Source: Escherichia coli (lineage in GTDB: Bacteria > Pseudomonadota > Gammaproteobacteria > Enterobacterales > Enterobacteriaceae). Taken from it: a DNA stretch of 805 nt. Shown one piece after another: positions 1 to 805 of this stretch (positions are counted from its first letter, which is position 1; each line of letters opens with the position of its first letter). Location of the stretch: NCBI RefSeq assembly GCF_003334765.1, contig NZ_QOWT01000096.1. One strand, 5' to 3'. Under the pieces are notes generated by a model. It saw only the letters and a program-made list of their open reading frames with translations. It was not told the DNA's origin and did not search any database. A program made the position numbers and the translations under genes.

Positions 1-805
1 CTGAAACGTATTTTGCCTGGTAACGGGCGTCATCAAGTGCATTATGGCGCTCACCTTCGAATGGAATAGCCGTTCTGGCATCGAAGTCTATGGCTTTCCC
101 CAGCTCAACGATTGTGCGTACATCGCGATCGTTGTAGTAACGCCACGGGCAGGGGATCCCCTGCCGTTCGTATGAACGGCGCAAAATCGTGTTGTCGAAG
201 TTGGCTCCATTTCCCCAAACCTGAACAAAAAATTCACCGGAGTTTTCGTCGATAAATTCCCGCAATTGTAACAGTGCATCATCTAACGGGATTTCATCGG
301 TCATAATGGCAGATTGCGCTTCGCGTGATTGCTTAAGCCACCATTTAATGGTGTCCCGATCAATGACTCCGCCAGCAGTTTCCAGATCGATAGTCTTACT
401 AAATTCCGGTCCCATATCTCCGGTTTGCGGATCGAAAAATATTGCACCTATTGAGATGATCGGGGCATCAGGATTTTTTCCCATGGTTTCAAGGTCGATC
501 ATTAGATGGTCACACGTCCTGCTGGTGGATGTGATTTCTTGATGACCGTTCACCTTAATTGAGTGATCTGCCGTCTCGCCAGTTTCATTATCGCTATCGT
601 GATGCTGATTGCCGCCAGTGTTCTCCTTGTGTGGATGTTCAGCGCCTTCCATTTCCTCCGGATCATCTTCCTGAACTTCAACCTGATACTCTTCATCGAA
701 TGTTTCTTGGTATGTTGCGTCGCCCATCACCGCGCCACAATCAGGGCAGTTGCCGCCGCCGGTCTGACCGCAGGCGGTGCAGACTTTTTCCACTTCCTGT
801 TGCGC
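1..805 (-). CDS. Internal fragment (5' and 3' ends outside window) of a large prophage-type nuclease: RecE-like Cys4 zinc ribbon and acidic linker followed by a DEDDh (DnaQ-like) 3'-5' exonuclease domain
   Basis: Reverse-complement translation in the frame where + 803..805 is codon 1 gives 268 consecutive sense codons with no stop: [268 protein letters not shown]. It contains recognisable exonuclease motifs and an enterobacterial-looking codon pattern. The other five frames are broken by stops or give only the short ORFs in the track. Confidence 0.88.
148..165. repeat. Perfect 18-bp palindrome GGCAGGGGATCCCCTGCC (9-bp arms, no spacer, GATC at the centre)
   Basis: Read directly: + 148..165 equals its own reverse complement; position 147/166 breaks the symmetry. 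Lies inside the CDS (codons for R-Q-G-I-P-C-P). Confidence 0.95.
163..180. repeat. Inverted repeat / hairpin: 7-bp stem GCCGTTC (163..169) and GAACGGC (174..180) with a 4-nt loop GTAT
   Basis: Read directly; overlaps the 3 terminal bases of the 18-bp palindrome, giving a 33-bp block (148..180) of dense dyad symmetry. Confidence 0.85.
566..721 (-). other. Acidic, His-containing low-complexity linker between the zinc ribbon and the exonuclease domain
   Basis: Translation [53 protein letters not shown] is dominated by D/E with several H, G and N and has no hydrophobic core pattern, consistent with a flexible interdomain linker. Confidence 0.6.
737..781 (-). other. Cys4 zinc-ribbon-like motif (CxxC-x7-CxxC)
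   Basis: Translation [19 protein letters not shown]: Cys codons at + 779..781, 770..772, 746..748 and 737..739. Glycine-rich spacer typical of small zinc ribbons. Confidence 0.6.

Follow-up and report, generated by a model that had tools for sequence, protein, structure and literature searches.

A conserved four-cysteine cassette, probably zinc-binding, in a prophage exonuclease of Escherichia coli and its occurrence on RecE, Dam methylases and small phage proteins

The window and its host protein

The window, that is, the whole 805-base stretch of DNA that was analysed, was spanned completely by one open reading frame on the minus strand. The CDS annotated over it has 824 codons and encodes WP_097346547.1, named 'exonuclease', of E. 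coli strain 510016; the window corresponded to residues 544-811 of this protein (hereafter the window protein) with a single difference (G607 versus D607). The window was 99.8% identical to a gene of most sequenced E. coli, with a match in 4722 of 5426 complete genomes at a median of two places per genome, and the gene was also found on induced and isolated phages, e.g. the PPompW family. The WP_097346547.1 gene was located in a lambdoid prophage adjoining ompW, in the order dicB, a DUF1482 gene (ydfD-like), exonuclease, xis, and int. The exonuclease gene (L001:4372-6846) occupied the slot of exo/bet or recE/recT in lambdoid elements, and neither a recT nor a bet gene was present next to it in its neighbourhood in the strain 510016 prophage. 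The following features were assigned in the window.

2..508, minus strand: DEDDh 3'-5' exonuclease domain (Rv2179c-like), residues 643-811; Pfam PF16473
515..697, minus strand: acidic, His-rich flexible linker, residues 580-640; AF2 pLDDT 23-28
698..784, minus strand: full conserved cassette, residues 551-579 (29 residues), the unit that recurs in other proteins
737..781, minus strand: Cys4 motif CxxC-x7-CxxC, consisting of C552, C555, C563, and C566 of the 824-aa protein
785..805, minus strand: end of a Q/E/N/P-rich low-complexity spacer, residues 544-550

The order in the protein was therefore a Q/E/N-rich spacer, the Cys4 motif, the acidic His-rich linker, and the exonuclease domain. The only Pfam domain of the full-length protein was PF16473, which matched residues 643-814 with an i-E of 5.2e-67 over model positions 2-177 of 177. 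The exonuclease motifs were DLET at 647, NGANFD at 742, and HNALDD at 797, and the domain ran 13 codons past the end of the window. As judged from the full-length domain match and the DEDDh motifs, the host protein is an Rv2179c-like DEDDh 3'-5' exonuclease. The spacer started outside the window at about residue 508, and residues 508-551 contained 16 Q/N and 8 D/E in 44 residues, with a pLDDT of 24-32. There was neither a plus-strand ORF of at least 20 aa overlapping the Cys4 site, nor an Rfam family on either strand of the window at E<=1, nor a match in the PADLOC defence-system search.

Within the acidic linker, a well-conserved, His-rich motif was observed at window positions 632-658 on the minus strand (residues 593-601), in which E596 was present in 97% of clusters. 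This motif could be a second, weak metal site or a partner site.

The Cys4 motif and the cassette

The original prediction, made from the DNA alone, had described a CxxC-x7-CxxC motif with a Gly-rich spacer at 737-781, directly upstream of an acidic linker. The motif was read exactly in the translation of the reverse complement, with the Cys codons at window positions 779-781, 770-772, 746-748, and 737-739; the two knuckles were CTAC and CPDC, each followed by Gly, and the spacer between them was GQTGGGN. The linker that followed, 61 residues long, contained 19 D/E against 3 K/R, together with 6 H. In composition-preserving shuffles, CxxC-x(2-25)-CxxC appeared in 0.04% of the shuffles of the window translation and in 0.07% of those of the full protein (P ~5e-4). 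These results confirmed the Cys4 observation: the motif is real and non-random, and its description had been accurate in every detail. That description had missed that the Cys4 motif is half of a longer cassette, that the cassette also occurs in RecE, on Dam methylases, and in small phage proteins, and that it is optional in the family. The consensus of the cassette was C-x2-C-G-x2-GGG-x-CPDCG[AP]VMGDATY-x-E-x-F, in which the Cys4 motif formed the front half.

Conservation and variation of the cassette

Homologues were gathered with two phmmer queries, residues 1-640 and residues 456-639, and the motif played no part in the selection. In this set, all four Cys residues were kept in 123 of the 132 homologue clusters covering the site, and they also persisted across unrelated host proteins, which supports the original prediction. 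Residues 552-579 were the best-conserved island of the otherwise variable, low-complexity linker region, which indicated that the conserved unit extends 13 residues beyond the last Cys. In an alignment of 40 diverse carriers (A2), P564, D565, G567, V569, G571, T574, and Y575 were invariant and M570 was nearly so, several of these columns being fixed by the DNA pattern that was used to find some of the carriers. The Cys codons varied synonymously between TGC and TGT in a motif-selected set of 93 distinct DNA versions, and synonymous changes also occurred at Pro, Asp, Gly, Thr, and Tyr positions of the cassette. The Cys residues stayed although the Gly-rich spacer differed in sequence and could be 6 or 7 residues long. 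Four proteins without the second Cys (C2) carried a new Cys three residues before C3, giving C-x6-C-x2-CPDC, so that four thiols were kept. Such a migration of a ligand would be hard to explain without a metal, and it therefore argues for metal ligation. The cassette was nearly invariant while the flanks fell to 38-48% identity, as seen in the Dam tails of seven other genera. Recent ancestry accounts for part of the conservation, because the carriers are for the most part closely related genes of enterobacterial phages.

The cassette was also found to be missing from close relatives. The closest paralogue of the same architecture, P0123 (901 aa, 61% identical over residues 83-545), showed no trace of it, it was entirely absent from the RecE-type relative P0226, and the natural deletion variant P0209 retained only CPDC. 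Because close paralogues lack it, the cassette is regarded as accessory.

Two deletions cut into the cassette, one of them that of P0209. In P0209, the sequence ...SGANAGGGN was joined straight to the rear of the cassette; about 280 residues were gone, and with them half of the Cys4 motif. P0202 (703 aa) was a RecE-RecT fusion with its junction inside the Cys4 motif, where CNACGQTGGD was joined to SALGHAYLL...; this deletion took away everything in recE after the junction together with the beginning of recT, and left two of the four Cys residues.

Comparison with RecE

RecE of E. coli K-12 (exonuclease VIII of the Rac prophage) carried the same cassette, with C517, C520, C528, and C531. RecE also shared with the window protein the motif KLLAxSRGEFVxGISDPNDPKWVKGI upstream of the cassette and the acidic linker motif downstream of it, and the shared region covered approximately RecE residues 452-591. 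The similarity stopped at RecE residue 591, at the start of the PD-(D/E)XK nuclease. Both genes occupied the same genomic slot, the early left operon of a lambdoid prophage, whereas the catalytic domain after the linker differed: a PD-(D/E)XK 5'-3' exonuclease in RecE and a DEDDh 3'-5' exonuclease in the window protein. The first ~260 residues of the window protein were considered unrelated to RecE, since the BLASTP alignment began at residue 262, and no recT-like gene followed the window-protein gene. With NCBIfam NF007259 (the RecE equivalog), the protein scored 277 bits against a cut-off of 1269, and only profile positions 440-602 were matched. Judged by these comparisons, the window protein is not RecE, and its nuclease belongs to another superfamily. 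The label 'exodeoxyribonuclease VIII' on many phage records is therefore misleading, because the cut-off of NF007259 was not reached and the C-terminus was PF16473.

The upstream motif was a second conserved element, about 45 residues before the Cys4 motif (residues 473-507; RecE residues 452-486). In tblastn searches it was the only part of the query that matched the RecE-like proteins of Salmonella Gifsy-1/2 and SPN3UB, and the cassette region gave no match to these Gifsy and SPN3UB proteins. A short helix at 476-483 was modelled by AF2 with low confidence. In RecE itself, residues 239-254 (TASGANAGGGNLTDRG; L003:5790-8387, minus strand) formed a Cys-less echo of the cassette with 9 of 16 residues identical, which was not significant alone.

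Two 2023 reviews describe the N-terminal region of RecE as 'of unknown function' and mention neither zinc nor Cys residues in it (PMC11611040; PMC11610958). The nuclease domain of RecE alone, without the cassette region, substitutes genetically for full-length RecE (PMC11611040), and full-length RecE is better at linear-linear recombination, for which the N-terminal ~600 residues give a boost (PMC11611040; PMC11610958). A 2025 survey reports that lambdoid Rec modules include DnaQ-like nucleases as well as 'RecE-2' proteins that have no nuclease (PMC12315714); a term search of this survey and its nuclease section gave no mention of the cassette. The cassette sequence was not found in the searchable literature.

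The cassette on other phage proteins

A scan of IMG/VR with a degenerate DNA pattern gave 120 loci. Every combination of two N-terminal types (window-type and RecE-type) with two C-terminal nucleases (DEDDh and RecE-type) was found among the ORFs, together with a third C-terminal type that was small and hydrophobic. D12-class Dam methylases accounted for 11 of the 120 ORFs, and in these, such as the Dam of Enterobacter phage phiT5282H, the cassette formed the C-terminal tail. The chemistries of the host enzymes were unrelated to one another, and all of these enzymes came from phage early regions.

In P0136, P0149, and L042, a RecE-type N-terminus, the cassette, and the linker were followed by a short hydrophobic domain (...LEKLDWKRQVVIAAVYGLCANPAG...) and no nuclease. 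These may be the nuclease-less 'RecE-2' proteins of PMC12315714.

At the species level, one genome per species was scanned with a looser pattern, in which C3, C4, and part of the tail were the only fixed positions. The cassette was found in Enterobacterales only, apart from L130 and L143, which were labelled as non-enterobacterial MAGs and whose sequences matched Escherichia versions. Exonuclease and RecE versions were found in Escherichia, and Dam-tail versions in Citrobacter, Enterobacter, Klebsiella, Kosakonia, Mixta, Hafnia, and Yokenella. Although the search pattern left C1, C2, P, and D free, these residues were present in all 15 enterobacterial hits. They were missing from the remaining 8 hits, which were chance matches or generic zinc ribbons.

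Small proteins also carried the cassette. It lay at the end of a 60-aa Mu-like phage protein, an 89-aa Klebsiella protein, and a 132-aa IMG/VR protein, and mid-chain in a 299-aa Aeromonas phage protein. Protein homologue searches with the module and with the A3 profile gave only matches of about the query length, which were mostly fragments, and revealed three small carriers. When positions 254-289 of the PHROG exonuclease-family profile were compared with unrelated carriers, E values of 1e-5 to 1e-8 were obtained, indicating that the similarity of the cassette between unrelated proteins is statistically real. The cassette represents a small family that had not been annotated before, of a very familiar type: a putative short Cys4 metal-binding module.

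The 60-aa protein (L151:6001-6183) consisted of a short N-terminus and a variant cassette, and was encoded among the early genes of a Mu-like phage, after MuA, MuB, Kil, and DUF3164 and before GemA and Mor.

Metal binding and fold

The form CxxCG is that of the classical rubredoxin or zinc knuckle, and both knuckles of the cassette read CxxCG. Short zinc ribbons (DZR PF12773, Zn_ribbon_3 PF13248, and TFIIB Zn_Ribbon_TF PF08271) likewise have two CxxC knuckles with a Gly after each, and generic ribbons in unrelated bacteria had second knuckles of the form CxxCG-x-V-M/I-G-x-x-T-Y. The spacer of the cassette, 6-7 residues that were all Gly or polar, was shorter than that of these ribbons, in which roughly 9-20 residues are usual, and the invariant tail GAVMGDATY-x-E-x-F was specific to the cassette. 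Stand-alone Rv2179c-like 3'-5' exoribonucleases (PF16473), e.g. a 185-aa P2-like Klebsiella protein, had neither the Cys4 cassette nor the linker.

In the full-length scan, Pfam gave no hit over residues 552-566 even at E<=10. The isolated module matched zinc-ribbon families only, all below threshold (DZR i-E 0.0085 for the window version; best member 1.8e-3), and none of 40 members gave a Pfam match at E<=0.001. DZR was matched in 20 of the 40 members at E<=0.1, and RZ-type and TFIIB ribbons were also matched. A PDB sequence search with the cassette gave only chance-level knuckle matches (e.g. MAT1 and BRF; E>=0.5).

The full-length protein (824 aa, alignment of 96 sequences) was modelled by AF2 with a mean pLDDT of 59.9. 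The two blocks containing the site had a pLDDT of 48 and 40, versus 24-32 in both flanks, and the exonuclease domain only 45-70. Since a genuine exonuclease domain reached only this value, the full-length model was underpowered for the fold. The 51-aa cassette modelled alone, with 40 diverse sequences, had a pLDDT of 54-61, which is not confident; this model had a helix beginning at Y575 and, before it, isolated beta-bridges (V551, T558, C563, and G567), and Foldseek of the model against the PDB gave no match below E=5.

The site had been proposed to be a zinc ribbon and a small structured module flanked by disorder. Two CxxC knuckles with conserved ligands agree with the first proposal, whereas its fold label is not established, because there was no significant match in Pfam, the PDB, or Foldseek and the AF2 confidence was low. 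As for the second, the disorder of the flanks was borne out, and the site itself had a pLDDT of only 40-48. Overall, the original interpretation was supported in part. We consider metal binding by the cassette, taken by itself, likely, and the cassette is probably zinc-binding.

A short zinc loop of the alcohol dehydrogenase (ADH) kind would be an equally possible fold. The structural zinc loop of ADH, C-x2-C-x2-C-x7-C, holds one structural Zn with four Cys residues within 15 residues, and the variant cassette C-x6-C-x2-C-x2-C mirrors this spacing. The ADH loop has no sequence similarity to the cassette, and it is part of a large folded domain, whereas the cassette would be a free-standing bead in a disordered linker.

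Proposed role of the cassette

The explanation that we favour, with moderate confidence as a whole, is that the cassette is a small structural Zn(Cys)4 bead with an accessory docking or adaptor role, for a shared partner or for self-association. The four Cys residues would be the tetrahedral ligands of a single structural metal ion, probably Zn2+. The metal would close the 15-residue Gly-rich loop into a compact knot with two knuckles of the CxxCG type (CTACG and CPDCG), and this knot would fix the shape of the invariant stretch behind it, G-A-V-M-G-D-A-T-Y-x-E-x-F. The whole, approximately 30 residues, would be a self-contained cassette that phages have moved between DNA enzymes of their early regions. 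In the window protein it would form a structured bead between the Q/E-rich spacer and the acidic linker, ahead of the DEDDh exonuclease, with the flexible linker tethering the bead to the catalytic domain. Through its conserved face of hydrophobic and acidic residues, V-M-G-D-A-T-Y-x-E-x-F, the bead would dock a protein partner common to the carriers or associate with itself. We infer the docking or adaptor role because the cassette is acidic with no basic residue and is found on exonucleases of both polarities (5'-3' and 3'-5') and on an N6-adenine methylase. The motif, its conservation, its modular distribution, and the dispensability of the cassette are direct results of the comparisons; metal, fold, and docking role are inferred from them.

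If these proposals hold, phages would swap very small structured modules, and not domains alone. RecE is the workhorse of recombineering, and a conserved, probably metal-binding cassette is a concrete and cheaply mutated target in its N-terminal region. The practical consequence is modest; the cassette is also on the 3'-5' exonuclease of most sequenced E. coli and on prophage Dam methylases. What is added is a link to the unexplained N-terminal region of RecE and a 30-residue module shuffled among phage DNA enzymes.

A more specific form of the docking role, which we regard as tentative and rather unlikely, is that the cassette is a portable recruitment tag of lambdoid, P2-like, and Mu-like phages that would dock unrelated early proteins onto one shared partner, e.g. 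a component of the replisome or of DNA-end processing. In RecE, such a tag would partly explain the need for the N-terminal region in linear-linear recombination.

A DNA-binding zinc ribbon that holds the substrate DNA and passes it on to the nuclease or methylase was considered improbable. Zinc ribbons often bind nucleic acid, all identified host enzymes (RecE, the DEDDh exonuclease, and Dam) act on DNA, and the cassette had weak Pfam similarity to TFIIB and DZR ribbons. However, residues 551-579 contained three acidic residues and neither Lys nor Arg, with a net charge of about -3, and the linker around the cassette was strongly acidic, which makes direct DNA binding unlikely. The conserved non-ligand residues, V, M, D, T, Y, and F, were of hydrophobic or acidic character and not basic, and close paralogues with the same nuclease had no cassette. 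The contribution to DNA binding raised in the original prediction was therefore disfavoured.

We give just as little probability to a non-functional relic of the linker, in which the Cys residues bind no metal and persist through recent divergence and frequent recombination. The low AF2 confidence, the lack of a significant family match, the dispensability of the cassette in paralogues and in truncated RecE, and the origin of most copies in Escherichia prophages would all suit such a relic. They are set against a cassette that stayed near-invariant in the Dam tails of seven other genera beside strongly diverged flanks, the synonymous codon changes at Cys, Pro, Asp, Gly, Thr, and Tyr, the compensating Cys where C2 was lost, and the recurrence of the cassette in unrelated proteins of lambdoid, P2-like, Mu-like, and Aeromonas phages.

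A redox-active or iron centre, with rubredoxin-type Fe(Cys)4 or Fe-S ligands and a sensing or regulating role, was very improbable: CxxCG ... CPxCG is the rubredoxin knuckle signature too, and some nucleases (AddB, Cas4, and Dna2) carry Cys4 iron-sulfur clusters, but the spacer between the knuckles is 7 residues versus ~28 in rubredoxin, no rubredoxin Pfam match appeared even at E<=10, a disordered linker of ~75 residues separates the site from the nuclease where an iron staple embraces the nuclease domain, and the cassette is also carried by a methylase and by tiny proteins. Rubredoxin itself, whose knuckles fit, was rejected on the spacer and the Pfam result, and a staple of the Cas4/AddB type was rejected on the disordered linker and the non-nuclease carriers.

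Further observations on the tail of the cassette and the Dam proteins

A clamp-binding motif (QL[SD]LF) in YQETF was rejected by eye, as it did not fit and the Dam versions were without the Gln. In a P2-like Klebsiella element with a cassette-bearing Dam, a stand-alone Rv2179c-like protein (L006:1202-1759) was encoded two genes upstream. It appeared to have lost its catalytic residues, with DLIIIN for DLETMG and YTLTDA for HNALDDA. A common origin of the cassette and the exonuclease in P2-like phages was rejected, since this stand-alone exonuclease was only 28% identical to the window exonuclease.

The tails of many Dam-type cassettes closed with an acidic stretch followed by Phe as the last residue (FDDLEAF, FEDQEVF, and FDGAEGF), as in L004:2158-3129 (phiT5282H Dam), L006, L009, L131, L145, L146, and L148, and other Dam tails ended in ...FGAPAC. 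The acidic tails with a terminal Phe resemble the C-terminal tip of SSB (DDDIPF).
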